In this document: piece by piece, positions 17,159 through 32,108 of the stretch
Layout of the letters: each line of letters opens with the position of its first letter
How positions within the stretch are numbered: position 1 is the stretch's first letter
NCBI GenBank assembly: GCA_964420035.1
Contig: CAYQQR010000001.1
Span: forward strand, 41,283-105,282
Reading direction: 5' to 3'
Source: an uncultured Bacteroidaceae bacterium
GTDB taxonomy: Bacteria; Bacteroidota; Bacteroidia; Bacteroidales; SM23-62
Length of the DNA: 64,000 nucleotides
Notes under the pieces: generated by a model
What the model was told of the DNA's origin: nothing
Seen by the model: only the letters and a program-made list of their open reading frames with translations
Database searches by the model: none
Translations under genes and position numbers: made by a program

Positions 17159-18076
17159 CTATTTGAGCAGGAAGGAGGAGGTACCGATAAGGTTGTTTTC
17201 AGCATAAAGATTTACGGAATAGGAACCTTCGATCAACTGACCGTCATCATCCCAGTAAATACACAGATCCACATCCTGGTTTTCGTAATCTACCTCCCTG
17301 CTGGCTGTATACACCATTTGCTCGTCCAGGTATTCAAAAAGATTAACCCCGGTAGTAAGGATCACACTGTCGGGGCGCATAATGCGCATAAAAATCTCCT
17401 TGGTCCCGGGTTGAACAATCGCGTTCTCACGCAGGGTGAAACAAACCCGTAATTTTTCAATTTTCCTGACCTTGTCCTTTTCCCTGGAGCGCCTGTTCAG
17501 GCCGTCAACCATGATATTTTTTGCCTGAAGCACGGAAGCCTGTTCCACCATGGAGCTCAGATCTTCCCGTTCTTCCTCCAGTTCCCTGGTTGTTTTTTCC
17601 ATCACCATCAATTGGGTTTTGACTTCATAATTTTCAGCCCGAAGCTGTTGGTTGGCAGTATTCAATGAATCGATCTGGACGATATAACTGCGCATAATTT
17701 CGCGTAAAGTACCCAGTTCTTCTTTATACAGGCGGATTTTATAGACATTGTTGGCCCGTATCTTCAACAATTCTTCAATTTTTTCCTGTTCGGCTGCCAG
17801 CAGTTTATTGATGCTGTCGTTCTCGGTCTTCATGGAATCATATTGCACATACATCTGCTTCAATTCCTCTTCCAGCTCTTCTTTTTGATGCTCCAGCTCG
17901 ACCTTGTACACGGTCAACTCCTCCGTTTCTTTTCTTTCCTGCAGATAAACGTAAGTCAGGGCACCAATAGCAAGCGCCAGCACGATGATGGTAAAGACCA
18001 GAAACCCGGAGGTTCTTTTTCCCGGCTTGTTCTGTTGTATGTTCAGGTCCTTTCCCGGACCGGTATTCTCTGCCAT
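17159..18076 (-). CDS. membrane-anchored coiled-coil protein, function unknown
   Basis: 305 aa; one N-terminal TM helix (FLVFTIIVLALAIGALTYVY), about 150 aa coiled coil, beta-rich C-terminal domain. Confidence 0.6.
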   Translation of the reverse strand: MAENTGPGKDLNIQQNKPGKRTSGFLVFTIIVLALAIGALTYVYLQERKETEELTVYKVELEHQKEELEEELKQMYVQYDSMKTENDSINKLLAAEQEKIEELLKIRANNVYKIRLYKEELGTLREIMRSYIVQIDSLNTANQQLRAENYEVKTQLMVMEKTTRELEEEREDLSSMVEQASVLQAKNIMVDGLNRRSREKDKVRKIEKLRVCFTLRENAIVQPGTKEIFMRIMRPDSVILTTGVNLFEYLDEQMVYTASREVDYENQDVDLCIYWDDDGQLIEGSYSVNLYAENNLIGTSSFLLK

Positions 18077-18208: not shown

Positions 18209-18829
18209 TTATTCGAGTAATTTCAAACCTTCTGCCGCAGACTCATCCCCGGGGTTGTACAATTGAACTTTCTGAAACAAAACAATAGCCTCGTTTGTTT
18301 TCTTCATTTGTAATTTGGTCCAGGCAAGCAAGATAAGACCATCATAATCAAAGGGATATAGATTAACCACCTTTTGAAGATAAGATTCGGCAAGCTCATA
18401 CTCTTTGCGTCCGTAATAAATGCTGCCCAGGCGGTACAACACGATAGAATTATTTGGGGTGATCTCCAGTATTTTGTTGTATTGATCTATCACCAACTCC
18501 CAATTACCCATTGCACCGGCAGGATAAGCTATCCCAAGACGGGGTTCGATGGCAAAAGATCTCAGGTTGATGCAATTATTATAATAGGAAAGCGATTCTG
18601 TAAAGAACCCTGCCTGGTAGCTGAGCCAACCCAGGCGGAGGTTTAATTCATAATGGTCTTCCCCGTATTGTTTTTTTAAAACATTAATGGCTTCAGTATA
18701 TTTTCCTTCTTTTGCAAGCCGGTAACTTGAGCTGAAAGCATTGACCAGAACCCGGTGGCTCTGCCCGGCCAAAAGGCCGGGTAATAGGACAAAGTTCAGA
18801 GCGATGATTAATTTCCTGAGATGTTCCAT
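18209..18829 (-). CDS. secreted TPR-repeat protein (last gene of the PqqD/ATP-grasp operon)
   Basis: 206 aa; signal peptide MEHLRKLIIALNFVLLPGLLAGQ; TPR-like repeats; 22-nt overlap with the upstream gene. Confidence 0.65.
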   Translation of the reverse strand: MEHLRKLIIALNFVLLPGLLAGQSHRVLVNAFSSSYRLAKEGKYTEAINVLKKQYGEDHYELNLRLGWLSYQAGFFTESLSYYNNCINLRSFAIEPRLGIAYPAGAMGNWELVIDQYNKILEITPNNSIVLYRLGSIYYGRKEYELAESYLQKVVNLYPFDYDGLILLAWTKLQMKKTNEAIVLFQKVQLYNPGDESAAEGLKLLE

Positions 18830-20151
18830 TTTATTCCTCCTGTTATGGTGTGTAATTCATAAGGTATATTGATATCCGTTGCATTCAGGGGATCGGTTCC
18901 CAATATAAAATTCGCCCCCAATCTTGCATACCTGTAATTCACAAAAAACCGGTTGCCCCGGTTTCCGGGACTGTATATTAATTTCAGGGTATATAACCGG
19001 TCAATGGGATTGGGATCATTGTAAAAAAAATAACCATAATTCAGGGTTTGGTACCTGATCTTTCCTAAATGATACTGATTTTCTATCCAGATGTTCCCGG
19101 CCGGCTTAAATCCCAGCATGATATACCCGTTATAACGATCTTCTTTTTGATTATTTAACTCAAAGATGGATTTAAACACGGAACCCAAATAGAAGTTTAA
19201 ATTGCCCAGGGGATAATACAGCAACTGCATTTCGTTCTCGACCTGCCGGATGCCGCCTATTTCGCTGTATGCGGGAAACCAGAGCAGGGATATTTTTGAA
19301 ATGTTATAATTAATTCCCAGACCGGCTATAAAAGAAAAATCCTTCTGAGTACCTGTTTCACCGAGGAAAAGATTACCCATCCTGATTGTTTCGGTGTAAG
19401 CAGGCCACGATGAACGCACCAAATGTACAGCAGGCGTTATGGTCCAACCATACCCGGGCGTTATGGACAGGGCAAGATAATACTGATCCTGCATGATCTT
19501 TTCGTTCCTGATCAGGTAATAATCAGAATAGAACCGACTGATCCGGTCCTGGAATTTTTGCAGGCGCGAATATCCATGAAAAAGCCTCATTCGTGTTCCC
19601 AATTCGTGTTCCAGGTTAAAGGTAAGTACGGAATATTGTGAAACAACAGAACCCGGATCATAAGAAGGCATCAGATTGGCTTGATGCAGGTCTTCCCTGG
19701 ATTGATCGTTCAGTAAGCCGCCGTAAGTATAGTCGAGATTCACCGACCGGATCAATGCCGGGAATTTCATACCGGTAACTTTTTTTCGCGCAGGGGTCAG
19801 TTCCTGGTAACAGAGCGATGCGGCGTTTTTCCGGTTTAGGAACAAGCTGGCATAAAACAAATATTCCCTTGCAATGGTGTCTTCCGGGTTTTGTTTTACT
19901 GCTTTTTTGAAATGCCGTATGGAACCGGCATAATTTTTTTTATTATATTCCGCGGCCCCAACCCGTAATCTTAAATAGTAAAAATCAATACCCGATTTAA
20001 AAGCTCTTTTCCCTGTTTGGATCAGTTCGTTCCATGAAGACCTCATAAATTGCCCATAGGTAGCCGTATCCACCTGATAGCTGTTCAGGGACTGGGAAAA
20101 ACACAAGGTTCCCGTTGTTAATAGAACCAAACCAAGGATCACTCTTTGCAT
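18808..20151 (-). CDS. secreted protein with TPR-like N-terminus and beta-strand-rich C-terminal two thirds (possible outer-membrane barrel)
   Basis: 447 aa; signal peptide; alternating aromatic/polar pattern with many Y/F/G/N in the C-terminal part; 13-nt overlap with the upstream gene. Confidence 0.5.
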   Translation of the reverse strand: MQRVILGLVLLTTGTLCFSQSLNSYQVDTATYGQFMRSSWNELIQTGKRAFKSGIDFYYLRLRVGAAEYNKKNYAGSIRHFKKAVKQNPEDTIAREYLFYASLFLNRKNAASLCYQELTPARKKVTGMKFPALIRSVNLDYTYGGLLNDQSREDLHQANLMPSYDPGSVVSQYSVLTFNLEHELGTRMRLFHGYSRLQKFQDRISRFYSDYYLIRNEKIMQDQYYLALSITPGYGWTITPAVHLVRSSWPAYTETIRMGNLFLGETGTQKDFSFIAGLGINYNISKISLLWFPAYSEIGGIRQVENEMQLLYYPLGNLNFYLGSVFKSIFELNNQKEDRYNGYIMLGFKPAGNIWIENQYHLGKIRYQTLNYGYFFYNDPNPIDRLYTLKLIYSPGNRGNRFFVNYRYARLGANFILGTDPLNATDINIPYELHTITGGIKWNISGN

Positions 20152-22331
20152 CGTTTCAGGGATATTGATTTGTGTTTTGTTTCTTTGATCGTGTGTATAC
20201 CCGAACGGTCTATTTCAATGTCAAAGCTGAAATGTAATTGGAGTTTTCCCAGGACTTTTTTCAATGTGCCGCTTTCTATCTGAATGCGGGAGGGAGAAAT
20301 TTCATCATCCCTGTTCCGGTGCCGCGAAAAATATTCAGCGCTTAACCAGGTAAAGAAAGGAGCACTAAAATCATGAAGGGTCATTTTCCAGGTTTTATGG
20401 ACCAGGTTGGCCGGGAAGGAATCCGTAATTTTCAAGTCCTGGTAGTATCCCTGAATTACCTTGTAAAGCGCATTTACAAAAAAGTAAAGGCCTGAGGATT
20501 TGGGGCCCTTGAATTTCGTGAAATAGAAGACATTGTTGGTATTGACAAAATATGCCATGGCACCGGTTTCAGCACAATGCAGGTAGGACTGATTGTATGG
20601 ATCAGTGTGAATTTCAAAGGTCAACCTGCTTGATTTCCCTTTAGTATTGAACATGAAGCACAACCTTCTTCCCGGCACAAAATCAAAAGCTTCTTTTAAC
20701 AGCTTATCCGAAGTGATCCTGGAGATTCGGTCGTTTTCTTCAGGATAGCCAAAGGATAAAAATTTACTTTTGTCCTTTCCATGTAAGATGTAGAAGGAAA
20801 CAGGATATTTTCGGGTAGCAGAACCTATATAAGGTGTTTCCTGTATCTGAAAATGCAAATGGGGATAAGGAGAACGCCCCGAATTACCACACCGGGCCAG
20901 AACCTGACCTGTAGAAACCCTGTCCCCTGCACGTACATTAATGCTCCCCTTTTTCAAGTGGCTCAATTTTGAATATAAATGATCATCGTGTTTGATTATT
21001 ACGGTGTTCCCCCAGTTTTCTTCAAGATTAATTTCACCCACCCGATTGTCTTTTACCTGGTCCTGAATGGTTTCAATGGTTCCCGGTCCGGGAGCCAGTA
21101 TCTGACGACCATAGCAAAAATAGTCTTCATGCTTGTTACCCTCATTTTTATACTGTTTGTCATTACGTCCAAGGATTACGAAATCCCAGGCATAGCGCCA
21201 CTCATCTTTATGGGTGTATTTTCCGTTAAATGCCTGTGAAACCGACCAGGTTCCGTAAAAAGGAAGAAGCAGTTGATGTTTTCCCTGCCCTTGAAAACGT
21301 TTCCGGTTCAGAAAATGATTGTAAAGGTTTTTTTCCGGGACAAATTCCTGTACGTACACTTCTTTTAAACCCTCAGAGGGATGTGTCCTGTATTTCAGCG
21401 CATACAGGTAAAGTAAAACAATTATATTAAATGGCAGAGAATAAACCGGCAGTCCAATGATGGACAACACACCGTTAAGACTAACTGTGACCAGTGCAAC
21501 CACAGGGATCAGTATAACCACCCAAACATATGAACGAATGCCCGGTACAACAAAGTATCCACCTATGGCTATAGCGGTTAGAATGTAGTTGAATCCAATA
21601 TAACTGTAATTCAGATCGGTAAGATCGGCACCAATAAATGTATAGAAAAGATAAGCTGAAAAAAATCCCAGGAAGGAAAGGGTCCAGGCAATCCGGGAAT
21701 AGATCAGAATGCCAATGGAAATGATGACCCCGGAAAACACACTGAATTGAAAAAAAATGGCACCAAGGGAAATAAAATATATCCTCAATGTTCGTGGAAT
21801 GGCCAAATGGTTCCACCATTCATAGATTTGCACGAGTTTATTGCCCCCGAGCATGTACAGATCGTTAAGCTTAAAGATTGCCCGCGTACTCAATCCAAGA
21901 GCATCAAACTGTGAAGCGGACAACAAAAGGGTCCATACACCAAAAAGGAATGGGATGCTGAGATAGGGCAAACCGTATTTAGTAAGTATTCCCTGGAATA
22001 AAAGGGTCACGAACAAAGTAAAAATACCGCCCAGGATAATGAGAAGCGTTAATTCAATACAAGGCTCATAGTTGATGCCCAGACCCAGGCCCACCAGAAG
22101 GGCATTGAATCCATAATGGCCCTCCCGGATCATATAGGCACTCATGCGCATCAGGGAGGCAACTAAATTGGCAGTAAGTACACTCAGCAGACCGTACAAA
22201 CCTGTATATACATCAAAGAAGGTAACGAAGACCAGAATTCCGGAAAATAACAGATTTCTTGAGAAAAAAACCTGCGAATAACCGCGGGCAAGTGATTTCA
22301 GGAAAGTTATTGTTGTTAATTTTTCCTGCAT
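20139..22331 (-). CDS. fusion protein: urea-transporter-like polytopic membrane domain + M23 peptidase domain + C-terminal domain of unknown function
   Basis: 730 aa; N-terminal LARGYSQVFFSRNLLFSGILVF resembles the UT family signature, followed by about 9-10 helices; M23 core GNTVIIKHDDHLYSKLSHL...GNSGRSPYPHLHFQIQ. Confidence 0.7.
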   Translation of the reverse strand: MQEKLTTITFLKSLARGYSQVFFSRNLLFSGILVFVTFFDVYTGLYGLLSVLTANLVASLMRMSAYMIREGHYGFNALLVGLGLGINYEPCIELTLLIILGGIFTLFVTLLFQGILTKYGLPYLSIPFLFGVWTLLLSASQFDALGLSTRAIFKLNDLYMLGGNKLVQIYEWWNHLAIPRTLRIYFISLGAIFFQFSVFSGVIISIGILIYSRIAWTLSFLGFFSAYLFYTFIGADLTDLNYSYIGFNYILTAIAIGGYFVVPGIRSYVWVVILIPVVALVTVSLNGVLSIIGLPVYSLPFNIIVLLYLYALKYRTHPSEGLKEVYVQEFVPEKNLYNHFLNRKRFQGQGKHQLLLPFYGTWSVSQAFNGKYTHKDEWRYAWDFVILGRNDKQYKNEGNKHEDYFCYGRQILAPGPGTIETIQDQVKDNRVGEINLEENWGNTVIIKHDDHLYSKLSHLKKGSINVRAGDRVSTGQVLARCGNSGRSPYPHLHFQIQETPYIGSATRKYPVSFYILHGKDKSKFLSFGYPEENDRISRITSDKLLKEAFDFVPGRRLCFMFNTKGKSSRLTFEIHTDPYNQSYLHCAETGAMAYFVNTNNVFYFTKFKGPKSSGLYFFVNALYKVIQGYYQDLKITDSFPANLVHKTWKMTLHDFSAPFFTWLSAEYFSRHRNRDDEISPSRIQIESGTLKKVLGKLQLHFSFDIEIDRSGIHTIKETKHKSISLKRCKE

Positions 22332-22336
22332 GCAGC

Positions 22337-23683
22337 TTATTTAAGATGTTCCGGTAATACTTCCTTCGACAGAATGTCGTCAAGAGATTCTGCCTTCCGG
22401 ATCACATGGGGTTGACCTTTCATATCGATCATCACTACATTAGGACGCAGGGTGATAAACTGCAGCCACTGAGTCATATTGTATGCACCGACTCTCTTGA
22501 TAACATAATGATCACCTTTTTTTAGCAATGGGAACGAAACCGCTTCACGGATCACGTCAATATTCATGCACAGCGGACCGTAAATGCTCATGTCTTCCTG
22601 GTGTTCCGACACGGGTTGGGCCGGGTGGATCTCATGTTCATACCAGAAGGAAGTAAACAACAGGTTTACTCCGGTATCCACAATCGTTGATCTTCGGCCA
22701 TCCGATAATCTTTTGTTGGCCAGGACCGTACCCAACAAGTATCCGGCATCATCGATCAGGGCCCGGCCGGTTTCCAGGATCAGTAAGGGCAGATTGTCGG
22801 GTTTAATATTGGAATTCAGCAGGGCGCCGGTAATTGCATCTGCATATTCATCGGGCCCGGGGACAATATCCGTGCCGGGCAGATAAGAACCTTTCAATGT
22901 GTTCCTGGAGGCAAACCCCCCGCCAACATCAATATAGCTTATCTTATGATCAAATTTGTCCATGATGCTGAATGCAAGATGTGCCAATTTTTCCGTGGCG
23001 ATTTTGTAGGCATTGGATGTCAGCATGAAGGTGCCGATGTGGGTATGCAGTCCTGTCAACTCCATCCGTTTGTTATACATGATCCGGTTCAAAGCATCCC
23101 AGGCATCCCCGTTCTCGTAACTGAATCCAAAACGGTCCCATATGGGATAAACCCCGGTATCCATATTGACCCTGATGGCAACACGGGGTTTCTTCTCAGT
23201 CTTCTGTGCCAATTTGTCAATAGTGAACAATTCATCAAAATGATCGATGTGGATCAGGGAGTTGTTTTTAATGGCCAGATCCAGATCTTCCCCCGTCTTG
23301 TCCGGACCGTTGAATATAATATTGGATCCCTTGACCCCCAGGTGCAGTGCCTTTCTATATTCAAATCCAGACACTACCTCTGCCCATGAACCTTCCTGGT
23401 GAAAAACCCGGCAAACGGAATCCAGGTAGTTGGTCTTGTATGACCAGGCAAACTGAACTTTGGGATAACGGGAAGCGAACAGATCCTTAAACTCATTATA
23501 GGTTTCCCTGATAGTCTTTTCCGAAAGGACAAAAAGCGGGGACCCATACTGATCCAATAGTCCCTTTACCGATACATTATCAATATGGGTTATCGGTTCT
23601 ATGCCTGTTTTAAGGCCGAACTTTTCGGGCATTCCCGTTGATAATTTTTTGATGTAGGGCCGCTCAAAAGGTAATTTATCCAT
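22337..23683 (-). CDS. fold-type III PLP-dependent decarboxylase (Orn/DAP/Arg decarboxylase family)
   Basis: 448 aa; candidate PLP-lysine in AWSYKTNY, glycine loop DVGGGF, ETGRAL (EPGR-like), catalytic-Cys motif GPLCMNID. Confidence 0.8.
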   Translation of the reverse strand: MDKLPFERPYIKKLSTGMPEKFGLKTGIEPITHIDNVSVKGLLDQYGSPLFVLSEKTIRETYNEFKDLFASRYPKVQFAWSYKTNYLDSVCRVFHQEGSWAEVVSGFEYRKALHLGVKGSNIIFNGPDKTGEDLDLAIKNNSLIHIDHFDELFTIDKLAQKTEKKPRVAIRVNMDTGVYPIWDRFGFSYENGDAWDALNRIMYNKRMELTGLHTHIGTFMLTSNAYKIATEKLAHLAFSIMDKFDHKISYIDVGGGFASRNTLKGSYLPGTDIVPGPDEYADAITGALLNSNIKPDNLPLLILETGRALIDDAGYLLGTVLANKRLSDGRRSTIVDTGVNLLFTSFWYEHEIHPAQPVSEHQEDMSIYGPLCMNIDVIREAVSFPLLKKGDHYVIKRVGAYNMTQWLQFITLRPNVVMIDMKGQPHVIRKAESLDDILSKEVLPEHLK

Positions 23684-23695
23684 GTGGTTTATTCT

Positions 23696-24742
23696 TTAGT
23701 ATTCTCCTGTTGTTGATATGGCTTCAAAAGCTTTCAGGTCGCAGATCATATCGTATGAATAGCGAACAAACATTTTACCTGTATCATATTTGTTATAAGG
23801 CTCAATTTCCTTACCCAGGGCAAGCAAGACCAATGCTTCCGGTAAATTCTGCCCGGCTCCGACGGCAAGATATACCCAGGCCGGGATCCGGGGATTGATC
23901 TCGATTAGGTACAATTCGTCATCGGCATTTCTGATCAACTCCAGCTCCATCCCTCCGCGCCATTTGGTTTCGGCAATAACACGGTGGGTAAGGTCCAGCA
24001 TGTTCTTGTCATCTACAGTGATTCCTCCCCAGGCCTTGCCTTTATCGGTAATATATTGTTTTCTCATGGGGACCGCGCCCACCGTGTTGCCATGACCGTC
24101 ACCCAGGGCCACCACATTAACCTCGGTACCTTTAATGAATTCCTGAACAATGATGGGAAGGCCCCATTTGGCCATGATCTTATGGTAATACATTATTACC
24201 TGTTCATCATTATAAGCCGTATATGCATCATAAAACCGGCCTTTCACAAAAACAGGATATTCAAATTCTTTTTTAATCCTTGCGATATCCGAAAGATTAA
24301 AAAGCGAAATACTGTTGGGAACAGAAACTTTATACTTTTTGCCAAACTCGGGTAGGTTTTCTTTATGCCTTTCCTCTAACTGTTGCAGACCGGGCAGGAA
24401 AGTTTTTATCCCCATATTCGTTAACTGTGCAGAGGCTTTTATAAAGGTATAGAGCTCCGCATCAAAATTGGGGATGAGGAGATCGACAGAAGCTTTATTG
24501 TTAATTTCCCGGATGCGCTCCAATACGGCATTGGTTCCTTTCGAAGGATATGGTATCTGATAGGTTTTATCCACCAGTTCCCTGAGATAAATGCCGGGTT
24601 CAAGGCTCTCGTAAGCCAAACCTATTATATAGGGTTCCAGTACCTTTGATTCCCGGATGCCGCGTATGACCGGAATGCCCGGACCGGGATTATCCGTATT
24701 ATTAAGTCCCGTTATAGCGATGTTGACCTTAATTTTCTTCAT
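23696..24742 (-). CDS. ATP-grasp domain ligase
   Basis: 348 aa; YPVFVKG, IVQEFIKGTE and LYLIEINPRIPAW motifs characteristic of ATP-grasp (carboxylate-amine/thiol ligase) enzymes. Confidence 0.8.
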   Translation of the reverse strand: MKKIKVNIAITGLNNTDNPGPGIPVIRGIRESKVLEPYIIGLAYESLEPGIYLRELVDKTYQIPYPSKGTNAVLERIREINNKASVDLLIPNFDAELYTFIKASAQLTNMGIKTFLPGLQQLEERHKENLPEFGKKYKVSVPNSISLFNLSDIARIKKEFEYPVFVKGRFYDAYTAYNDEQVIMYYHKIMAKWGLPIIVQEFIKGTEVNVVALGDGHGNTVGAVPMRKQYITDKGKAWGGITVDDKNMLDLTHRVIAETKWRGGMELELIRNADDELYLIEINPRIPAWVYLAVGAGQNLPEALVLLALGKEIEPYNKYDTGKMFVRYSYDMICDLKAFEAISTTGEY

Positions 24743-24983
24743 TTTCCTCGATAAGGTGGTATGTTCTCAGACTTGATGTGAAGTCGAGCAAATGACGGTC
24801 CAATGTTTCATGGTCAACATCATATTTATCCATCATAATGGACGTAAGCTCCTCCATTGATTTACCTTCCTGTTGTAAAGCAATAATATCCCGGCCAACC
24901 TGGTTCAGGGAAAATGACTCCCCGGTTGAGGGATTGAAAAGAAATCCGGAAGGACTGAGCGCTATATTATCTTTTATTTTCAT
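24729..24983 (-). CDS. PqqD family protein (RRE-like peptide/carrier chaperone)
   Basis: 84 aa; G.SF.LN..G..I pattern, then a helical part ending DFTSSLRTYHLIE, as in PqqD-like proteins; 14-nt overlap with the ATP-grasp gene. Confidence 0.7.
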   Translation of the reverse strand: MKIKDNIALSPSGFLFNPSTGESFSLNQVGRDIIALQQEGKSMEELTSIMMDKYDVDHETLDRHLLDFTSSLRTYHLIEENEEN

Positions 24984-25084: not shown

Positions 25085-26032
25085 TTATGAACCACAGTCT
25101 CTGTCTTCTTCGGTGAACAGGTCATCTCTCGTGATTCCATACTTTTCCTCTTTCTCAATATTACCATAGGGTTCAATATGGATCACAACGTCGTAGATAT
25201 TATCAATGGCTTTGCGGATACTATACTCAACTTTTTGCCCGATCTCATGGGCCTTATAAACATTCTGGTCTCCATCCACTTCCAGGTCGATGGCCACCAG
25301 GTAAAACTTGGCGATCTTCCTGATCCTGATCCGGTGTGGATTATGGGCACCCGGAACCTGCTCCACGGCATGGATCACGGTACTGTACAAGCCGGGATCA
25401 TCCACCCCGTCCATCAGATCCCGGTTGGTCTGCATGAAAATCTGAAATGCCACTTTCAAAATCCAGGCACTTACCAGCAAAGCTGCAACAGAATCAAGAA
25501 TGGGCATCTCCAGGATAAAGGTGAAGAACAATCCGACCAGTACAGCAAGGGAAATAAGTACGTCATTTTGCATGTTCCGCGCGTTGGCCCGGAGCATTTC
25601 GCTCATACTTTTTTTCCCTCGGCTGTGAAGGTAACGGGCCAGTATGAATTTGGCGAGGATGGAAAAAATGGTCACGTGAATAGCAATTATACCAGGCATT
25701 TCCCGGGGCGTTCCTTCGATCAGGGCACCTGTGGTTGAAATGGCCAGTTGGGCCCCGGCAAAGGCAATCACAAAAGACAGGGCCTTGGTGGCCACGGTAT
25801 CGGCTTTCAAATACCCATAAGGATATCGTTTATCCGGGGGCCTGGCAATAATTCTGGCCGTGAACAAGGTGATCAGGGAGGTGATGATATCACTTGCCGA
25901 GTCAATGCCATCGCCGATAACCGCCAAACTTCCGGAAATCAAACCGACAGAGATCTTAAGTGCAGCCAATAGGGCATTTCCGGCAATACTGATCCGGGAA
26001 GCCCGGATGATGGTTTTGGCAAAAGCATTCAT
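25085..26032 (-). CDS. cation diffusion facilitator family transporter (FieF-like)
   Basis: 315 aa; SGSLAVIGDGIDSASD signature, 6 TM helices, cytoplasmic C-terminal domain. Confidence 0.85.
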   Translation of the reverse strand: MNAFAKTIIRASRISIAGNALLAALKISVGLISGSLAVIGDGIDSASDIITSLITLFTARIIARPPDKRYPYGYLKADTVATKALSFVIAFAGAQLAISTTGALIEGTPREMPGIIAIHVTIFSILAKFILARYLHSRGKKSMSEMLRANARNMQNDVLISLAVLVGLFFTFILEMPILDSVAALLVSAWILKVAFQIFMQTNRDLMDGVDDPGLYSTVIHAVEQVPGAHNPHRIRIRKIAKFYLVAIDLEVDGDQNVYKAHEIGQKVEYSIRKAIDNIYDVVIHIEPYGNIEKEEKYGITRDDLFTEEDRDCGS

Positions 26033-26330: not shown

Positions 26331-26777
26331 ATGAATTATCTCAGGTACATATTGAACCTGTTTTTAATGGTACCATTCCTGATGGCATCGGCCGGCATAG
26401 GGATATATCTGCATCATTGCAATATGCAGAAAACATCACATGTATCCCTCACAGCCGTAGAATCCTGTTGCCTGCAAAACAGGGATGCTGGTCCGGATGA
26501 TTGCTGTGACACCGGCCATAATAAAGAAAGTTTCAGCAATGATATCGAAAAGGATTGTTGCAACACCGACTTTGAATACTATAAAATAGAAAACGATTAT
26601 AAAGTATCCCAGGAGAAAAAAACGGTCCCACCGGTTATCACTGTAAATAACCAATCACCCCGGGCCGATTTAGGAGCTCAGGCTTCTGTTCAGAAAAAAG
26701 GGAACGTCAACCATTATTTTCCCCCTGGATCCTCTTCTTCACCCATCTACATCCGGATTGCCCATTTACGCTTATGA
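26331..26777 (+). CDS. Cys-rich single-pass membrane protein (HxC/CC/PP motif family; I believe it corresponds to the family named HYC_CC_PP), paralog 1
   Basis: 148 aa; N-terminal TM helix, then GIGIYLHHC, SCC, DCC, DCC, YYKIENDYKV and tail FPPGSSSSPIYIRIAHLRL; alignable along its length with 32599-33041. Confidence 0.6.
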   Translation: MNYLRYILNLFLMVPFLMASAGIGIYLHHCNMQKTSHVSLTAVESCCLQNRDAGPDDCCDTGHNKESFSNDIEKDCCNTDFEYYKIENDYKVSQEKKTVPPVITVNNQSPRADLGAQASVQKKGNVNHYFPPGSSSSPIYIRIAHLRL

Positions 26778-26864: not shown

Positions 26865-29105
26865 ATGAAAAAATTAATCCTTTTATTCAGTATCCTATTG
26901 TACCCGTTGACCCTCGTGAACCTGAATGCCCAGGAGCATGATCATGAACCGGGGGTCCATGGACGGGTGGTACAGCTCGGTGCCGACGGGGAAAAGATCC
27001 CCCTTGAATTTGTAAATGTATATTGGCTCGGAGCGACCAGGGGAACCATCACCGGTAAAGACGGTCATTTTCACCTGCCCGGGCGCCGTGAAAGCGAAGC
27101 AAAACTTGTCGTCAGCTACATTGGCTTCGAAAATGATACCATTGCGGTTCCCGGCGGCACGGATCATTTTGAGATCCTCCTTGAGAAGGCCCGGGAGATA
27201 GAAGAAGTAGTTGTTGCCAAAAGGCTGGGGGGGACCATGATCTCAAGGATTCAACCCATGCAGATCTCCACCATCACCGAAAAGGGCTTGCAAAAGCTTG
27301 CCTGTTGCAACCTTTCGGAGAGTTTTGAGAACAGCGCCACGGTTGATGTGGGCTTCAGCGACGCGGTAACCGGTTCGAAAAAGATACAGATGCTTGGACT
27401 AGACGGAGTCTACAGCCAGATGATGTTTGAAAATATTCCCATACTCCGGGGCCTGGAGGCCGCTTACGGACTCAGTCATATACCCGGTACCTGGATGGAA
27501 TCCATACAGGTTTCCAAAGGCACCGCTTCGGTGATGAACGGCTATGAGTCCACCACCGGACAGATCAATCTGGAATACCGGAAGCCCCAGGATTCCGAAC
27601 CTCTATACGTCAACCTGTATGGAAACAGCAAAGGACGCCTGGAGGCTAATTTTCACAGCGCTGTTCCGGTGGGGGAGAAATTAGCAACTATGCTGCTGGG
27701 ACATATCTCGATGACAGGAACCAAACACGATAAAAACCAGGACGGATTCCTGGATATTCCACTCTCCCAACAGATAAATCTTTTTAACCGGTGGAAATAT
27801 ACCGGGGAACGTTCCAGTGCTCAATTCGGACTGTCTTATCTGGATGAAACACGCGACGGGGGACAGGTTGATTATGATCATGATGAAGATATCAGGACCA
27901 ACGGTTTGTACGGGACCAGTATACACTCCAGGAGGTACCATGCCTATGGTAAATACGGGATCAGCTATCCCTCCAAACCCTATCAAAGCATAGGTTTTAT
28001 AGGATCATTCACCCGGCACGAACAGGATTCCTATTTTGGGAATAACGATTATACGGGTGAGCAGACCAGCGGGTATTTCAACATGATCTACCAGGGGATC
28101 CTGGGAACCACGGCTCATAAGATCAACGGAGGTTTCAGTTTTACCTATGATCATATTATGGAAAGCTATGACAGTCTGAGCTTTGACAGGCAAGAGTATG
28201 TCCCGGGCATATTCGGGCAGTATACCTATTCCGACCTGGAAAACTGGACCGTGATAGTGGGCATACGCCTGGATTATAATTCGCATCACGGACTCTTGTA
28301 TACACCCAGGCTGCATAGCAAATACGATTTCGATGAAAACACCATTCTGCGCGCTACCCTGGGTAAAGCTTACCGCTCACCCAACATCTTTTCTGAAAAC
28401 CAGCGTTACCTGGTAAGCTCCAGGAACATGATCATTCAGGAAGAACCTGAGATCGAAGAAGCCTGGAACATGGGATTGAACCTGACCCGTCATTTTCCCC
28501 TGGCCGGGCAGAGGGAAGCCGTATTCAGCGTGGATTTTTACAGGACCCGGTTTGTAAAACAACTTATCGTTGATGCCGACCAAAGTGCACGGGCCGTATA
28601 CTTTTATAATCTTGACGGTACATCCTATTCCAATGCCTTGCAGGCAGATTTCCTCGTGCAGCCCCTGAACGGCCTGGAAATTAACCTGGCCTACCGGCTG
28701 AACGATGTACATGCCACCTACAATGGAGCATTGAAAGAAGTTCCCCTGGTGGGCAGGCACAAGGGATTGTTTTCCCTTGGTTATGCAACCCGGTTTGAAA
28801 TCTGGCAGGTGGATTTTACCGGTCAGTGGACCGGCAGCGCGCACCTGCCCAATACCGGGGATAATCCACCGGAGTATCAGCGGGGTAAAAGATCGCCCGA
28901 CTTTTTCATGATCCATGCCCAGCTGACCAGGCGTTTTAAGCATTTTGATGTCTATGCGGGTGGTGAAAACCTCCTCGACTTCAGGCAGGAGGATCCCATT
29001 GTTGCAGCAGACGATCCCTTCGGGGAATATTTCGATGCCTCCATGATATGGGGTCCGCTGAGCGGAAGAATGTTCTACGCGGGATTAAGAATAAGTATTG
29101 AATAA
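26865..29105 (+). CDS. TonB-dependent receptor with N-terminal carboxypeptidase-regulatory-like domain
   Basis: 746 aa; signal peptide, His-rich EHDHEPGVHG, CarboxypepD_reg-like HGRVV...TGKDGHFHL, plug, long beta-barrel, C-terminal ...FYAGLRISIE. Confidence 0.9.
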   Translation: MKKLILLFSILLYPLTLVNLNAQEHDHEPGVHGRVVQLGADGEKIPLEFVNVYWLGATRGTITGKDGHFHLPGRRESEAKLVVSYIGFENDTIAVPGGTDHFEILLEKAREIEEVVVAKRLGGTMISRIQPMQISTITEKGLQKLACCNLSESFENSATVDVGFSDAVTGSKKIQMLGLDGVYSQMMFENIPILRGLEAAYGLSHIPGTWMESIQVSKGTASVMNGYESTTGQINLEYRKPQDSEPLYVNLYGNSKGRLEANFHSAVPVGEKLATMLLGHISMTGTKHDKNQDGFLDIPLSQQINLFNRWKYTGERSSAQFGLSYLDETRDGGQVDYDHDEDIRTNGLYGTSIHSRRYHAYGKYGISYPSKPYQSIGFIGSFTRHEQDSYFGNNDYTGEQTSGYFNMIYQGILGTTAHKINGGFSFTYDHIMESYDSLSFDRQEYVPGIFGQYTYSDLENWTVIVGIRLDYNSHHGLLYTPRLHSKYDFDENTILRATLGKAYRSPNIFSENQRYLVSSRNMIIQEEPEIEEAWNMGLNLTRHFPLAGQREAVFSVDFYRTRFVKQLIVDADQSARAVYFYNLDGTSYSNALQADFLVQPLNGLEINLAYRLNDVHATYNGALKEVPLVGRHKGLFSLGYATRFEIWQVDFTGQWTGSAHLPNTGDNPPEYQRGKRSPDFFMIHAQLTRRFKHFDVYAGGENLLDFRQEDPIVAADDPFGEYFDASMIWGPLSGRMFYAGLRISIE

Positions 29106-29611: not shown

Positions 29612-30241
29612 ATGAACATCATAAAAACAAAAGTGATTCCGGCTTTGATATTTGGCTTGATCGGACTGCAGGTCATACAAGCGCAGGTATCCTATAAGTT
29701 CATAAAGGAAGGATCACTGATCCGGGTTACCGGTACATCCACGATCCACGATTGGGCCATGGAAGCAAAGGATCCTGACGGGGTGGTGCAATTTAAGATC
29801 GACAAAAACACGCTCGCCGGAATAAAGGATCTTCATGTTACCATCCGGTCCGACAGGATCCTCAGTGATAACCGGATCATGAACAACAAAACTCATGAAG
29901 CCCTTGCTGCAAAAAAACATCCTGAAATTATTTTCCACCTGAACGAAGTAAAAGGGTTCAAAATCGAAGACAGAAAAATATCGGGTCAGGTGACGGGAAC
30001 ACTCAGGATAGCAGGCAAGAGCAGGGAAATATCCCTCCCTTTCACAGGGATATATAAAGGTGAAGAAATAAAGATAATGGGGAATAAGATACTCAACATG
30101 TCTGATTTCGGTATCGAGCCCCCGACGGCCATGCTGGGAACCCTGAAAACAGGCGACAAGGTGGCAGTAAATTTTGTGACCACCTGGAGACAGCAGGATC
30201 AGGGTACCGCGTACCTGAAAGAAAAACAAAATAAAAAATAG
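29612..30241 (+). CDS. YceI family periplasmic protein
   Basis: 209 aa; signal peptide; GTSTIHDW, KHPEIIFH and ...KVAVNF motifs of the YceI-like lipocalin fold. Confidence 0.85.
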   Translation: MNIIKTKVIPALIFGLIGLQVIQAQVSYKFIKEGSLIRVTGTSTIHDWAMEAKDPDGVVQFKIDKNTLAGIKDLHVTIRSDRILSDNRIMNNKTHEALAAKKHPEIIFHLNEVKGFKIEDRKISGQVTGTLRIAGKSREISLPFTGIYKGEEIKIMGNKILNMSDFGIEPPTAMLGTLKTGDKVAVNFVTTWRQQDQGTAYLKEKQNKK

Positions 30242-30249
30242 CAACAATC

Positions 30250-31482
30250 ATGATTAAAAAAATATTCATTTTAACCATATTATCATTTGTAGCATTAATT
30301 GTTAGTGCACAGGAATTTGAAGAGGCAAAGCTGGATCCGGATAGCTTCGAAAAACTCAAGGTCCGGGTGGGCGCCGATTTTGCCCTGCAGTTCCAGGGAT
30401 TGGACCATAGTGCCGACAGTACCCTGATCCCATTGGGCAGGAACGTGAACCTGCCAACGGCCAACTTCAATATAAGTGCCGATCTCGCCCCGGGGATACA
30501 GGTCAATCTGATAACCTACCTCTCATCCAGGCATCATCCTGAAGCCTGGGTAAAGGGAGGATACCTTCTGATCGACCGTCTGCCCTTTATCAATTCTGAT
30601 TTTCTTAACCGGATCATGGAGATTTCCACCCTTAAAGCGGGGGTTATGGAGGTCAATTACGGGGATGCCCATTTTCGCCGTTCGGATAATGGCAGGGTGA
30701 TCGACAATCCCTTTGTCGGGAACTATGTAATGGATGCTTTTACAACGGCTCCGGCCCTCGAAGCCATGATGAGGACCAGGGGATGGACCGTGCTGGGAGG
30801 AATTTCGACAGGTAGTCTCAGACCCGATCTGGTCCGCTACAGTTCTTTTAGCGACCGTTATACCTCCTATAACATCGGGGAAGAGCTGGCAGTATACACC
30901 AAGCTCGGTTATGACAAACAATTCAGTGAAGACTTCAGGATCCGGGGTACGGTTTCAGGCTATTATAACGGGAATCATCATTTTGGATCCCTGTATTATG
31001 GCGACCGGGCCGGTTCCAGGTATTACCTGGTTATGAACCGGCAAACCGGAAGTTCCGATGATGTGGATCCTTCACAGAATCATACTTCGAGCCGCTGGGG
31101 TCCGGGCTTTACAGACAAAAACCAGGCATTTATGGTCAACCTGTTTACCCGCTTCCATGGATTGGAATTTTTCGGCACCTATGAACGTACAGCAGGTACG
31201 GGTGCTTTTAGCGGTGCCGAATACGGGTACAGCCAGTTTGCAGCCGAACTGATTTACCGTTTCGGCAACAGGGAACAATTCTATGGCGGTGGAAAATTAA
31301 ATAAGGTTTCCAACGACAAGGACCAGGATATTTCGAGGTTTCAGATCGGAGCAGGATGGTTGATAACAGAGAATATCATTTTCAAGGCTGAATATGTCAA
31401 CCAGGGTTATAACAATTTCAGTGATTACGGACAGGATGCAGGCTTTAACGGACTTATGCTTGAAGCCGGCATTTCCTTTTAA
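30250..31482 (+). CDS. outer-membrane porin-like beta-barrel protein
   Basis: 410 aa; signal peptide; alternating beta-strand pattern; C-terminal GLMLEAGISF (terminal aromatic beta-signal). Confidence 0.5.
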   Translation: MIKKIFILTILSFVALIVSAQEFEEAKLDPDSFEKLKVRVGADFALQFQGLDHSADSTLIPLGRNVNLPTANFNISADLAPGIQVNLITYLSSRHHPEAWVKGGYLLIDRLPFINSDFLNRIMEISTLKAGVMEVNYGDAHFRRSDNGRVIDNPFVGNYVMDAFTTAPALEAMMRTRGWTVLGGISTGSLRPDLVRYSSFSDRYTSYNIGEELAVYTKLGYDKQFSEDFRIRGTVSGYYNGNHHFGSLYYGDRAGSRYYLVMNRQTGSSDDVDPSQNHTSSRWGPGFTDKNQAFMVNLFTRFHGLEFFGTYERTAGTGAFSGAEYGYSQFAAELIYRFGNREQFYGGGKLNKVSNDKDQDISRFQIGAGWLITENIIFKAEYVNQGYNNFSDYGQDAGFNGLMLEAGISF

Positions 31483-32108
31483 TGCATATGAGCAGACTTA
31501 TCAAGCCTATATCGTTAATTCTGCTGCTGTTAGGGTTCGGTACCGCCTCCAACGCGGATAAACCCGCCGGCAGGGAACCCTCGTGTGCAGCTTTTATCCG
31601 GATTGAAGGCAATACCAATTTGAACACATTCGAATTGATGTATTCTTTCCGTGACGAATCGGTCGTGTTGCATTCATCCTCCGGATCAACCCCCGCTGAT
31701 CTGCAAAAGATCAAGATCCCCGTGAGGGATTTCCGTGGCGATTCCAAAGCCATGGAAAGGGATTTTCATCAACTGGTCAAATCGGAACAACATCCTGCCA
31801 TAGTAATTGACTTCAAAGGATTCCGTGAATTGAATTCCAGGGAAGGCAATTACATGGCCATGGTCAACATCACCATGGCCGGTATAACACGGTCCTATAG
31901 CATACCGGTACGCATCCACTCACACCGGGAAGGGAGCCTCTGCCTCCAGGGGAAAAAAGCAATCAGGATCACGGATTTTAACCTGCAACCTCCCGAAAAG
32001 TTCTTCGGTTTGGTCGAAGTCCGCGATTATATCCATATCGATTTTTCTTTTAATTTTATACCCGACAAACCCAGGAATTTCCTCAGTACCAATGAAATTC
32101 AATACTAA
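31482..32108 (+). CDS. YceI-like domain protein (divergent)
   Basis: 208 aa; signal peptide; MERDFHQLVKSEQHPAIVIDF and ITDFNLQPP...DYIHIDFSFNF resemble YceI family blocks. Confidence 0.55.
   Translation: MHMSRLIKPISLILLLLGFGTASNADKPAGREPSCAAFIRIEGNTNLNTFELMYSFRDESVVLHSSSGSTPADLQKIKIPVRDFRGDSKAMERDFHQLVKSEQHPAIVIDFKGFRELNSREGNYMAMVNITMAGITRSYSIPVRIHSHREGSLCLQGKKAIRITDFNLQPPEKFFGLVEVRDYIHIDFSFNFIPDKPRNFLSTNEIQY

Follow-up and report, generated by a model that had tools for sequence, protein, structure and literature searches.

A conserved orphan operon combining an ATP-grasp ligase and a decarboxylase with a putative export module in Bacteroidota-group genomes

Six linked genes and their products

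Six minus-strand genes lie between positions 18,209 and 24,983 of the window, the 64,000-nucleotide stretch of Bacteroidaceae DNA analyzed here (CAYQQR010000001.1). In the order of reading, they encode a PqqD-type protein, an ATP-grasp ligase, a PLP-dependent decarboxylase, a urea transporter (UT)-M23 peptidase fusion, a β-barrel protein, and a tetratricopeptide repeat (TPR) protein. Successive genes are separated by a 14-nt overlap, a 12-nt gap, a 5-nt gap, a 13-nt overlap, and a 22-nt overlap. A gap of 101 nt separates the first gene from an upstream CDF efflux gene, while a downstream gap of 132 nt carries the direct repeat TACGCGAGC/TAAGCGAGC and a small hairpin. The preliminary description of this locus held in full as an observation: all coordinates, junctions, and sequence motifs were recovered, and all six domain calls passed Pfam gathering scores. 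A single transcript is inferred from gene arrangement alone. A scan for sigma-70 promoters was uninformative (23 sites against 21 expected) and terminator-like sites numbered 16 against 10.0 expected.

The first gene (24729..24983, minus strand) encodes an 84-aa PqqD/RRE-type protein (Pfam PqqD, 42.3 bits, E = 9e-11). Its closest solved relatives are the lasso peptide leader-binding proteins TbiB1 (E = 8e-10) and TfuB1, and it is likewise closest to the NCBIfam lasso and peptide-chaperone models. The C-terminal tail is usually acidic, but varies across homologs from 2 to about 20 residues and ends in E, D, N, A, G, S, R, K, and others. The second gene (23696..24742, minus strand) encodes a 348-aa ATP-grasp ligase with an ExNPR motif (ATPgrasp_Ter, 43.9 bits; ATP-grasp_3, 35.0 bits). 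In NCBIfam it matched the uncharacterized "CPS-like" PRK12767 models below their cutoffs, and weak matches to archaeal pseudomurein ligase and Ddl models were also seen in the family searches. A profile search of the PDB returned the carbamoyl-phosphate synthetase large chain (4e-9), 2PN1, biotin carboxylases, urea amidolyase (weakly), PurD, and PurK, with no hits to RimK, LysX, Ddl, or GshB. The ligase belongs to the carbamoyl-phosphate synthetase/biotin carboxylase/Pur (PurT-like) branch rather than to the peptide-modifying branch.

The third gene (22337..23683, minus strand) encodes a 448-aa PLP decarboxylase of the alanine racemase fold (Orn_Arg_deC_N, 93.6 bits; Orn_DAP_Arg_deC, 52.2 bits). 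It is closest to FigC/FslC, the N-citrylornithine decarboxylase (7KH2, E = 3e-58), compared to 2e-39 for DAP decarboxylase (DAPDC) and 6e-28 for BtrK, although it scored below the NCBIfam cutoffs for FslC (227 against 500) and LysA. With residue roles taken from the FigC study (PMC7857480), the PLP lysine, Gly loop, Arg, Cys372-Met373 pair, and T344 and Y348 of the specificity helix are kept, whereas the citrate contacts of FigC (T330, H357, R387, and N389) are replaced by W347, I375, Q405, and M/L407. All of these positions are invariant or nearly so in 75 homologs. The pocket is more hydrophobic, lacks the Asp that binds a free side-chain amine in ODC and DAPDC, and lacks the DAPDC residues for the distal carboxylate and amine.

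The fourth gene (20139..22331, minus strand) encodes a 730-aa fusion of a urea-transporter-fold channel (residues 12 to 312; Pfam UT, 197.2 bits, 4e-58), an M23 metallopeptidase (about 360 to 500; 60.9 bits, 1e-16), and a β-rich C-terminal domain (about 500 to 730). In an AlphaFold model (pLDDT 78), Foldseek matched the channel to dvUT (TM about 0.79) and also recovered M23 domains. Alignment to dvUT is full length and the paired GFN and LPxxS/TxPF pore motifs are largely kept, but the equivalent of E187 is an invariant Ala and the protein scored below the NCBIfam urea transporter cutoff (137.7 against 274.6). The M23 residues H374, D383, H458, H491, and H493, which match known zinc-ligand and catalytic positions, are invariant in 56 sequences. 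The C-terminal domain is family specific: it occurs only in this architecture (288 representative clusters), with no Pfam or PDB match.

The peptidase is most likely cytoplasmic, in which case it probably belongs with the chemistry enzymes rather than acting on the cell wall. This placement rests on homology and charge bias: the protein aligns with the full UT profile and no hydrophobic segment follows it, UT-B termini are intracellular, other C-terminal UT fusions are ankyrin and EF-hand domains, and the family-wide charge pattern is +1 at the N terminus, -1.5 in the central loop, and +3 in the post-membrane linker. Two partly covarying cysteines in the C-terminal domain (both present in 37 sequences, neither in 8, and mixed in 11) leave a little room for a periplasmic, disulfide-bonded domain.

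The fifth gene (18808..20151, minus strand) encodes a 447-aa protein with a signal peptide, a TPR-like domain of about 100 residues, and a predicted outer membrane β-barrel of about 14 strands (AlphaFold pLDDT 83.6). Foldseek matches were OmpG, FadL/TodX, and CymA, with the TPR-porins BcsC and PelB in the top 10. The family consensus ends in GGIxWxF, and the protein evolves fast (27% median identity). The last gene (18209..18829, minus strand) encodes a 206-aa TPR protein (multiple TPR Pfam families, best E = 1.5e-17), predicted to be periplasmic from an N-terminal signal-like sequence judged from the sequence only.

Conservation of the cassette

The same six genes, in the same order and strand, were found in 55 complete loci among the best 80 of at least 591 ATP-grasp matches in species-representative genomes of Bacteroidota, plus Ignavibacteria and Chlorobiota metagenome-assembled genomes. 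With unrelated flanks between loci, this arrangement is far beyond chance. Cultured carriers include Cyclobacterium, Algoriphagus, and Labilibaculum. A lack of synteny in other genomes had been set beforehand as a condition that would refute the interpretation, and the cluster passed this test. The junction overlaps are themselves conserved: PqqD and ligase genes overlap in 53 of 81 loci, UT-M23 and barrel genes in 45 of 58, and barrel and TPR genes in 44 of 55, of which 41 overlap by exactly 13 nt. One natural PqqD-ligase fusion exists (designated P0130/L084), and two loci keep only the PqqD-ligase-decarboxylase trio, which marks it as a separable core. Median identity of the ligase across loci is 67%, and the enzymes as a whole are unusually conserved (67 to 68%). 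A usual seventh gene, an AraC-type regulator upstream, was missed in the preliminary description and is absent from this window. Beyond this regulator and DUF2202, neighboring genes gave no clear pathway context: no mur, ldc, amp, or other wall genes recurred nearby and no siderophore receptor or uptake genes were enriched. No conserved small ORF was found within 10 kb in about 80 loci, and the gap between regulator and PqqD gene can be only 13 to 18 nt.

Comparison with characterized systems

The cassette matched no characterized pathway in Pfam, NCBIfam, PADLOC, or the literature searched, and no paper was found that describes it. The FigA/FigC (FslA/FslC) rhizoferrin route and the related SbnH and AcsE steps of NIS siderophore synthesis share the logic of ligating first and then decarboxylating the conjugated amino acid, but there the ligase is an IucA/IucC NIS synthetase rather than an ATP-grasp. 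Lasso peptide B1/B2/C systems likewise join an RRE protein to a peptidase and an ATP-dependent amide-forming enzyme, and small molecules are built on, and then cut from, ribosomal scaffold peptides (mycofactocin, pearlins, and fosfazinomycin [PMC13622209]). Here, however, no precursor or scaffold gene was found within 10 kb, the peptidase is M23 rather than a transglutaminase-fold enzyme, the ligase is not asparagine synthetase-like, and conservation and breadth are much higher than is usual for RiPP clusters. Butirosin side-chain assembly by BtrI/BtrJ/BtrK also combines an ATP-grasp, an alanine racemase-fold decarboxylase, and a partner of about 85 aa, but that partner is a phosphopantetheinylated carrier, and no other btr-like genes are present here. 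Like the TPR-porin exporters (BcsC, PelB/PelC, PgaA, and AlgK/AlgE), the cassette encodes a barrel with a periplasmic TPR arm and a separate TPR protein, tightly gene-coupled to an inner membrane component. The barrel is much smaller and the arm much shorter, and the inner membrane partner is a channel-peptidase fusion rather than a polysaccharide synthase. Compared to urea transporters (dvUT, Yut, and UT-A/UT-B), the full-length fold is shared, but the channel is always embedded in this six-gene cassette. The UT-M23 architecture was listed in a 2026 survey (PMC12998343), which assigned it no function.

Putative function

The interpretation first offered for the locus was partly supported. One coupled operon, the six domain assignments, the lack of a precursor gene (within 10 kb), and the split into a chemistry module and an envelope module all held. 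The analogy to BtrI/BtrJ/BtrK is weak, the ligase is not graspetide- or microviridin-like, and the "secreted beta-rich protein" is a TPR plus predicted outer membrane barrel. A butirosin-like route in which the 84-aa protein is a covalent carrier, or a LysW-type variant using a C-terminal Glu, is very unlikely. BtrK is a detectable relative, the small protein is coupled to the ligase, and its tail is usually acidic, but it belongs to the PqqD/RRE fold family rather than that of an acyl carrier or LysW, its tail is inconstant, the ligase shows no relation to LysX or RimK, and FigC is a far closer relative of the decarboxylase.

Other readings are also unlikely, to differing degrees. The least improbable is a true RiPP pathway with its precursor encoded elsewhere in the genome, in which the PqqD protein binds the leader, the ATP-grasp and decarboxylase modify the core, the M23 domain is the leader peptidase, and the envelope proteins export a mature peptide. 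Similarity to lasso B1 proteins and an apparently active peptidase favor this logic, MccE shows that a decarboxylase of this clade can tailor a peptide conjugate (PMC7857480), and scaffold and precursor genes can go unnoticed for years. However, beyond the lack of a conserved small ORF within 10 kb and the short regulator gap, the ligase is unrelated to known peptide-modifying ATP-grasps, a UT-fold pore is too narrow for a peptide, and the conservation of the enzymes and their invariant pocket across at least 591 hits fits a fixed physiological product better than a diversifying natural product. Slightly less likely is editing or recycling of cell wall peptides, with the ligase adding an amino acid to a peptidoglycan stem peptide or precursor as D-aspartate ligase or Ddl-type enzymes do, the decarboxylase acting on the free end of a bound diamino acid, and the M23 domain cleaving stem-peptide or cross-link bonds. 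All characterized M23 relatives found are peptidoglycan hydrolases or their regulators, DAP decarboxylases are the second-best relatives of the decarboxylase, the ligase has its weak pseudomurein ligase and Ddl matches, and TPR and outer membrane partners are common in envelope machineries. Against this stand the predicted cytoplasmic peptidase, the missing DAPDC residues and sub-cutoff LysA score, and the absence of recurring wall genes, and PqqD domains are not known to bind muropeptides.

Uptake of a small urea- or amide-like solute through the barrel and a passive channel, followed by trapping through ATP-dependent ligation under a substrate-induced AraC-type regulator, is more doubtful still. 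The UT pore signatures are largely kept, 14-strand barrels such as OmpG, CymA, and FadL are uptake channels, the ligase resembles carbamoyl-phosphate synthetase and, weakly, the urea amidolyase ATP-grasp, and AraC regulators often control catabolic operons. Yet no urease, allophanate hydrolase, biotin carrier, or carboxyltransferase was found in or near the cassette, this route gives no role to the PqqD partner, the peptidase, or an amino acid decarboxylase, the urea transporter score is below cutoff, and a periplasmic TPR arm with overlapping genes is the hallmark of export conduits. Least likely is an amino acid-based exopolymer polymerized by the ATP-grasp, trimmed by the M23 domain, and secreted by a synthase-dependent-type exporter. 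The BcsC and PelB matches and a separate TPR protein recalling AlgK favor it, but the barrel has only about 14 strands and a short arm, no synthase, glycosyltransferase, or c-di-GMP module was found, a UT-fold protein is not a plausible polymer translocon, and the decarboxylase would have no role.

What the analysis establishes is a conserved, overlapping gene unit with two coupled submodules (PqqD with the ligase, and the channel-peptidase with the barrel and TPR protein), the enzyme families, the conservation of key catalytic-site residues in the decarboxylase and M23 domain, and, from homology and structural models, the urea transporter and outer membrane barrel folds. Catalysis, substrate, product, and transport, including its direction, are inferred. 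We tentatively propose that the ligase spends ATP to join a small, uncharged carboxylate to the side-chain amine of an ornithine- or lysine-type amino acid, or that the carboxylate belongs to a peptide held by the PqqD partner. The FigC-like decarboxylase, which in this view needs a free alpha-amino acid end and tolerates a blocked side chain, would then remove the alpha-carboxyl group to leave an N-acyl diamine. The peptidase, on the cytoplasmic side of the channel, would cut the product free from its peptide or protecting handle, and the small polar product would leave through the channel, the periplasmic TPR protein, and the TPR-barrel. An AraC-type regulator would normally control the cassette. 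Several findings favor this model. The decarboxylase clade (FigC, SbnH, AcsE, MccE, and BtrK) serves specialized metabolites rather than polyamine synthesis (PMC7857480). As far as is known, each of these enzymes acts on an amino acid moiety already conjugated at its far end. The ligase belongs to the branch that activates small carboxylates, the PqqD protein is closest to leader-peptide binders and coupled to the ligase, the TPR-barrel architecture resembles that of trans-envelope exporters, and fosfazinomycin offers a precedent for building small molecules on an overlooked ribosomal scaffold peptide with an RRE. The peptide handle nevertheless remains hypothetical, the cycle would be futile if the peptidase cleaved the very bond that the ligase makes, and a urea transporter pore is narrow, with nothing to show that it carries anything but urea-like solutes. 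On present evidence, the locus is one copy of a conserved cassette of the Bacteroidota/Ignavibacteria/Chlorobiota group, which may make a small amide-linked amine in the cytoplasm, possibly built on a peptide handle, and pass it out through its own two-membrane route.

Conservation and gene order of the cassette

The six minus-strand ORFs are present exactly as the preliminary description had placed them, at 24983-24729 (84 aa), 24742-23696 (348 aa), 23683-22337 (448 aa), 22331-20139 (730 aa), 20151-18808 (447 aa), and 18829-18209 (206 aa), and its observation therefore held in full, including every motif it had listed. The junctions are a 14-nt overlap, a 12-nt gap, a 5-nt gap, a 13-nt overlap, and a 22-nt overlap. 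Upstream, a 101-nt gap separates the cassette from a CDF cation-efflux gene, and downstream there is a 132-nt gap that carries a short direct repeat and a hairpin. All domain calls pass Pfam gathering scores: PqqD (42.3 bits against a cutoff of 23.4), ATP-grasp (ATPgrasp_Ter, ATP-grasp_3), both halves of the Orn/DAP/Arg decarboxylase fold, UT (197 bits) plus Peptidase_M23, and TPR. In contrast, none of the six proteins reaches the curated cutoff of any NCBIfam model, and none matches a PADLOC defense model, which led us to reject a role as an anti-phage system. A riboswitch or other RNA element was likewise rejected, as Rfam gave no hits in the window. A sigma-70 promoter scan was no better than shuffled sequence, which is unsurprising, since Bacteroidota use other promoter types.

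The UT-M23 fusion has more than 3,600 homologs, of which the best 120 are all about 730 aa and about 50% identical, while the ATP-grasp has more than 6,800 homologs, of which the best 120 are 67-72% identical. Three metagenomic contigs chosen through the fusion protein carry all six genes in the same order, with unrelated flanks. A scan of one genome per species returned at least 591 ATP-grasp matches, from which the best 80 loci were retrieved and only these were examined for gene order (loci are numbered here with the prefix L). They include many Bacteroidales and Bacteroidota MAGs, cultured Cyclobacteriaceae (Cyclobacterium, Algoriphagus, Rhodonellum, Shivajiella, Fontibacter), Labilibaculum, a Lacibacter MAG, Flavobacteriales MAGs, and Ignavibacteria and Chlorobiota MAGs. 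Matching the six proteins of the window against all ORFs of all loci gave 55 complete six-gene cassettes, always in the same order and on the same strand. Lack of synteny among homologs had been named beforehand as a condition that would refute the proposed operon, and it was not observed. Median identity to the window was 67% for the ligase, 68% for the decarboxylase, 53% for the TPR protein, 47.5% for UT-M23, 46% for PqqD, and 27% for the barrel protein. The overlaps are themselves conserved and define two coupled submodules: PqqD and the ligase overlap in 53 of 81 loci, UT-M23 and the barrel in 45 of 58, and the barrel and the TPR gene in 44 of 55, where the overlap is exactly 13 nt in 41.

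Among loci with enough sequence there are few exceptions. Locus L061 has only the PqqD, ligase, and decarboxylase genes, and in L057 the same three are followed by a 140-aa UT-M23 remnant (L057:12481-12903), suggesting that the cytoplasmic trio can stand alone or that the envelope genes can decay. In L082, from a Chlorobiota MAG, a 347-aa polytopic membrane protein with no NCBIfam match (L082:12543-13586) is inserted between the decarboxylase and UT-M23 genes, and no TPR gene was detected at the end of that cassette. A DUF4405 membrane protein (277-286 aa) is inserted between the PqqD and ATP-grasp genes in two loci (L008:7090-7923 and L017:9148-10008).

The ligase, the decarboxylase, and the PqqD protein

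The closest solved relative of the decarboxylase is FigC/FslC, the N-citrylornithine decarboxylase (7KH2, E 3e-58), far ahead of DAP decarboxylases (2e-39), BtrK (6e-28), and D-Orn/Lys decarboxylase. FigC has been placed in a clade with SbnH, AcsE, MccE, and BtrK, whose members, if not a DAP or D-ornithine decarboxylase, are stated to be likely to serve specialized metabolites rather than polyamine synthesis (PMC7857480). Mapping the alignment onto the numbering of that study showed that the window enzyme keeps the PLP lysine, the glycine loop, the phosphate-binding Arg, the Cys-Met pair (C372-M373), and T344 and Y348 of the specificity helix. Like FigC, it has no Asp after the catalytic Cys, the residue that ODC and DAPDC use to hold a free side-chain amine. 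The proposed citrate contacts of FigC (T330, H357, R387, N389) are replaced by W347, I375, Q405, and M/L407, positions that are invariant or nearly so in 75 family members. Scores fell below the NCBIfam cutoffs both for FslC (227 against 500) and for LysA (TIGR01048, 215.7 against 297.9). We infer a single fixed substrate: an amino acid with a free alpha end whose side chain is blocked by a group smaller and less charged than citrate.

For the ligase, a profile search of solved structures, even at E up to 10, matched only carbamoyl-phosphate synthetase (4e-9), the uncharacterized 2PN1, biotin carboxylases including urea amidolyase, and PurD and PurK-type enzymes; RimK, LysX, Ddl, GshB, and graspetide ligases did not appear. 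The ExNPR motif in its sequence fits that branch. The ligase is therefore an amide- or acyl-phosphate-forming enzyme of the "small carboxylate" kind by homology, and not a known peptide-modifying ATP-grasp. The PqqD protein is closest to the stand-alone lasso-peptide leader binders TbiB1 (8e-10) and TfuB1 and to NCBIfam peptide-chaperone models. Its gene is coupled to that of the ligase, and one natural PqqD-ATP-grasp fusion of 435 aa was found (protein P0130, L084:1269-2576), although this could be either a genuine fusion or a frameshift in the usual short overlap between the two genes. The C-terminal tail is usually acidic but varies from 2 to about 20 residues and ends in E in 22, D in 20, N in 18, and another residue in 22 of 82 sequences. 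We considered and rejected a LysW-like covalent carrier with a fixed C-terminal residue on the basis of this variation, and the ligase shows no LysX or RimK similarity.

A precursor peptide gene was sought upstream of, inside, and around the cassette, as ORFs of at least 12 aa with an ATG start within 1.5 kb and as ORFs of 18-89 aa with any start in true intergenic DNA across the whole ±10 kb of every locus (about 80 loci) and the whole window. Neither search found a conserved small ORF other than PqqD itself and out-of-frame shadows of the PqqD and AraC-type regulator genes. The gap between regulator and PqqD can be as short as 13-18 nt, too short for a precursor gene, and the in-cassette junctions overlap; a precursor gene upstream, inside, or within 10 kb was therefore rejected within the size range of these searches. 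A peptide substrate, if there is one, is encoded elsewhere, is under 12 aa, or is part of one of the cassette's own proteins.

Predicted envelope proteins and neighboring genes

The AlphaFold model of the UT-M23 protein (pLDDT 78) matches dvUT and mammalian UTs (TM about 0.79 normalized to the target) and M23 domains. The channel part aligns over the full length of dvUT and, taking a 3-residue offset between the dvUT chain index and its published numbering, keeps the paired pore signatures: Q20, the two GFN motifs, and two LPxxSxPF motifs with Ser in place of Thr. However, the equivalent of dvUT E187 is an invariant Ala, and the score against the urea transporter equivalog TIGR03441 is 137.7, below the cutoff of 274.6. 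No hydrophobic segment follows the UT domain. UT-B has an intracellular N-tail and C-terminal loop, and other C-terminal UT fusions are ankyrin and EF-hand modules (PMC12998343). The family-wide net charge is +1 at the N terminus, -1.5 in the central loop, and +3 (six K/R) in the post-membrane linker. From this homology and charge bias we infer that the M23 domain and the domain after it face the cytoplasm. Residues H374, D383, H458, H491, and H493 are invariant in 56 sequences and, by our comparison with LytM and LasA, match the zinc-ligand and catalytic positions, so that the peptidase looks active as judged from sequence. The Tyr at position 380 of the window M23 motif was considered as an inactivating change but rejected, because that position varies naturally (H in 43, Y in 11, N in 2). 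The last 230 residues or so are modeled as a confident beta-rich domain that gave no PDB profile hit and no consistent Pfam signal and occurs only in this architecture (288 representative clusters among 1.84 billion proteins); in the whole-protein Foldseek search, UT and M23 hits masked this domain. Two of its cysteines covary only partly.

The 447-aa protein is modeled (pLDDT 83.6) as a signal peptide, a TPR-like domain of about 100 residues, and about 14 long strands. Foldseek matches are the 14-strand barrels OmpG, FadL/TodX, and CymA, with the TPR-porins BcsC and PelB also in the top ten, and the family consensus ends in an aromatic residue. The 206-aa protein is a TPR protein with a signal-like N terminus. 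Taken together, this looks like a small trans-envelope conduit.

An AraC-type regulator of about 197 aa lies just upstream of the cassette in 42 loci (e.g., L022:8555-9148, L081:8813-9409, and L084:403-996), that is, 34 of the 64 loci with at least 1.5 kb of upstream sequence, and on the same strand in 33; the window has no copy. Its N-terminal domain of about 90 aa carries a cysteine motif, NM[VLI][CS]xCC, which recalls metal-binding MxCxxC sites, but an HMA metal-binding domain was rejected for want of a Pfam HMA hit. A DUF2202 (ferritin-like) lipoprotein gene recurs within a few kb upstream in 16 loci (e.g., L046:6386-7033 and L001:3948-4568), and a CDF gene occurs nearby in 9, including the window. 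A protein of about 260 aa with a signal peptide, an N-terminal domain of about 165 aa, and a T9SS (Por_Secre_tail) sorting domain accompanies the cassette in 9 loci (L001:12172-12963, L002:12171-12962, L003:5789-6571, L013, L026, L031, L042, L069, and L076). It follows the TPR gene in 8 and sits between the ligase and decarboxylase genes in L003. Only its sorting domain matched anything, and we rejected it as a universal partner, as it is confined to these 9 loci and absent from the window.

Immediately downstream of the window cassette, a 305-aa coiled-coil membrane protein (17159-18076, minus strand) is conserved in that position in 17 loci, accompanied in 13 by a HemN-like radical SAM gene, but this is probably local synteny rather than part of the system. 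On the other side, a 148-aa Cys/His-rich protein with a hydrophobic N terminus and no Pfam or NCBIfam match (26331-26777, plus strand) lies between the CDF efflux gene (25085-26032) and a TonB-dependent receptor (26865-29105), followed by two YceI-like proteins (29612-30241 and 31482-32108), which may represent a metal-related neighborhood. Further along, two adjacent plus-strand ORFs of about 230 aa (33263-33964 and 34025-34720) match consecutive parts (profile positions 23-220 and 250-461 of 1021) of an AcrB-type RND efflux pump, a gene that appears broken by frameshifts, either as a pseudogene or through assembly indels. The CDF gene, TonB receptor, and Cys-rich protein, together with the FigC similarity and the DUF2202, ABC-3, and hemerythrin genes at other loci, prompted the hypothesis of a siderophore or metallophore cluster. 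However, in an unbiased Pfam census of 136 neighbor genes from 26 loci, only AraC (13) and DUF2202 (6) recurred, and no TonB-receptor family was among the 25 families listed. The siderophore idea is therefore not supported by context and remains only a weak hint.

Possible functions and comparison with known systems

Our preferred reading, which is tentative, is that the ligase, helped by the PqqD partner, forms an amide between a small uncharged carboxylate (or a peptide carboxylate) and the side-chain amine of an Orn/Lys-type amino acid, after which the FigC-like enzyme would decarboxylate the free alpha end. The cytoplasmic M23 domain would then cut the product from its handle at the mouth of the UT-fold channel, and the product would leave through the channel, the TPR protein, and the barrel. 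What the analysis establishes is limited to the parts list, the conservation of key catalytic-site residues, the folds, and the gene coupling, whereas substrate, product, direction of transport, and topology are inferred. The ligate-modify-cleave logic has precedents in FigA/FigC, butirosin, microcin C (MccE), and scaffold-peptide routes such as fosfazinomycin, where the scaffold gene was overlooked for years.

Alternative hypotheses are an RRE-dependent RiPP pathway with a remote precursor, editing of peptidoglycan peptides, uptake and trapping of a urea-like solute, the butirosin-like carrier-protein route of the preliminary description, and export of an exopolymer. A PqqD/RRE peptide-binding domain is present, as a RiPP cluster would require, but no precursor gene was found within 10 kb. 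By the profile search of solved structures, the ATP-grasp is not of the MdnB/MdnC or RimK-like branch that acts on a neighboring precursor in graspetide systems, and neither a B2 transglutaminase-fold protease nor the asparagine-synthetase-like cyclase of lasso systems is present in the six proteins or among the 25 neighbor families listed. The M23 domain retains the putative zinc ligands and catalytic histidines of peptidoglycan endopeptidases, but homology to UT topology and the charge bias predict a cytoplasmic rather than an extracytoplasmic location. The UT fold and pore motifs are kept, without equivalog-level similarity to urea transporters.

The interpretation offered in the preliminary description was only partly supported. 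The small protein matches PqqD/RRE models only, rather than an acyl carrier protein with a phosphopantetheine attachment site as in the butirosin BtrI/J/K module, and BtrK is a relative of the decarboxylase, but FigC and DAP decarboxylases are closer. An IucA/IucC-family synthetase, as in NIS siderophore pathways of the FigA/FigC type, is absent from the cassette and from the 25 neighbor families listed. An outer-membrane barrel with a periplasmic TPR arm, as in synthase-dependent exopolysaccharide exporters, is predicted, but the cassette has no cognate inner-membrane glycosyltransferase or synthase, and glycosyltransferases account for only 4 of 136 neighbor genes. For each family considered (RiPP clusters, graspetides, lasso systems, BtrIJK, LysW carriers, NIS siderophore pathways, LysA, bona fide urea transporters, and synthase-dependent exporters), the cassette thus fails at least one tested defining feature.

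Literature searches found no description of the cassette, and a 2026 survey merely lists UT-M23 fusions as a domain architecture, without a function. We tentatively regard the cassette as a ligase/decarboxylase biosynthetic operon with a putative dedicated exporter, on present evidence without a product or phenotype in hand. It is less likely, although a realistic chance, that it represents a previously unrecognized kind of pathway, widespread in the Bacteroidota group. In this view, a small amine or ureido-type metabolite is assembled by an RRE-assisted ATP-grasp ligase and a FigC-like decarboxylase on a peptide or protecting handle, released by a cytoplasmic M23 peptidase directly at the mouth of a urea-transporter-fold channel, and taken across the outer membrane by a dedicated TPR-barrel conduit. 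This would mean a new job for M23 peptidases (as a cytoplasmic release enzyme), a new job for UT channels (metabolite export), and a new physiological small molecule.

The cassette combines parts in unexpected ways: a leader-peptide-type binding protein with no peptide gene in sight, an M23 "cell-wall" peptidase that appears to face the cytoplasm, a urea-channel fold that never occurs here without a ligase and a decarboxylase, and a miniature TPR-porin. Each of these challenges the default annotations that databases give these proteins, namely "urea transporter," "carbamoyl-phosphate synthase large subunit," and, as we would expect, "diaminopimelate decarboxylase." As cultured carriers exist (Cyclobacterium, Algoriphagus, Labilibaculum, Rhodonellum, Shivajiella, Fontibacter), the question can be tested directly. 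With at least 591 hits in species-representative genomes and thousands of metagenomic homologs, the cassette is common and strongly conserved but has no assigned function, so that solving it would annotate six or seven genes in a large share of environmental Bacteroidota.
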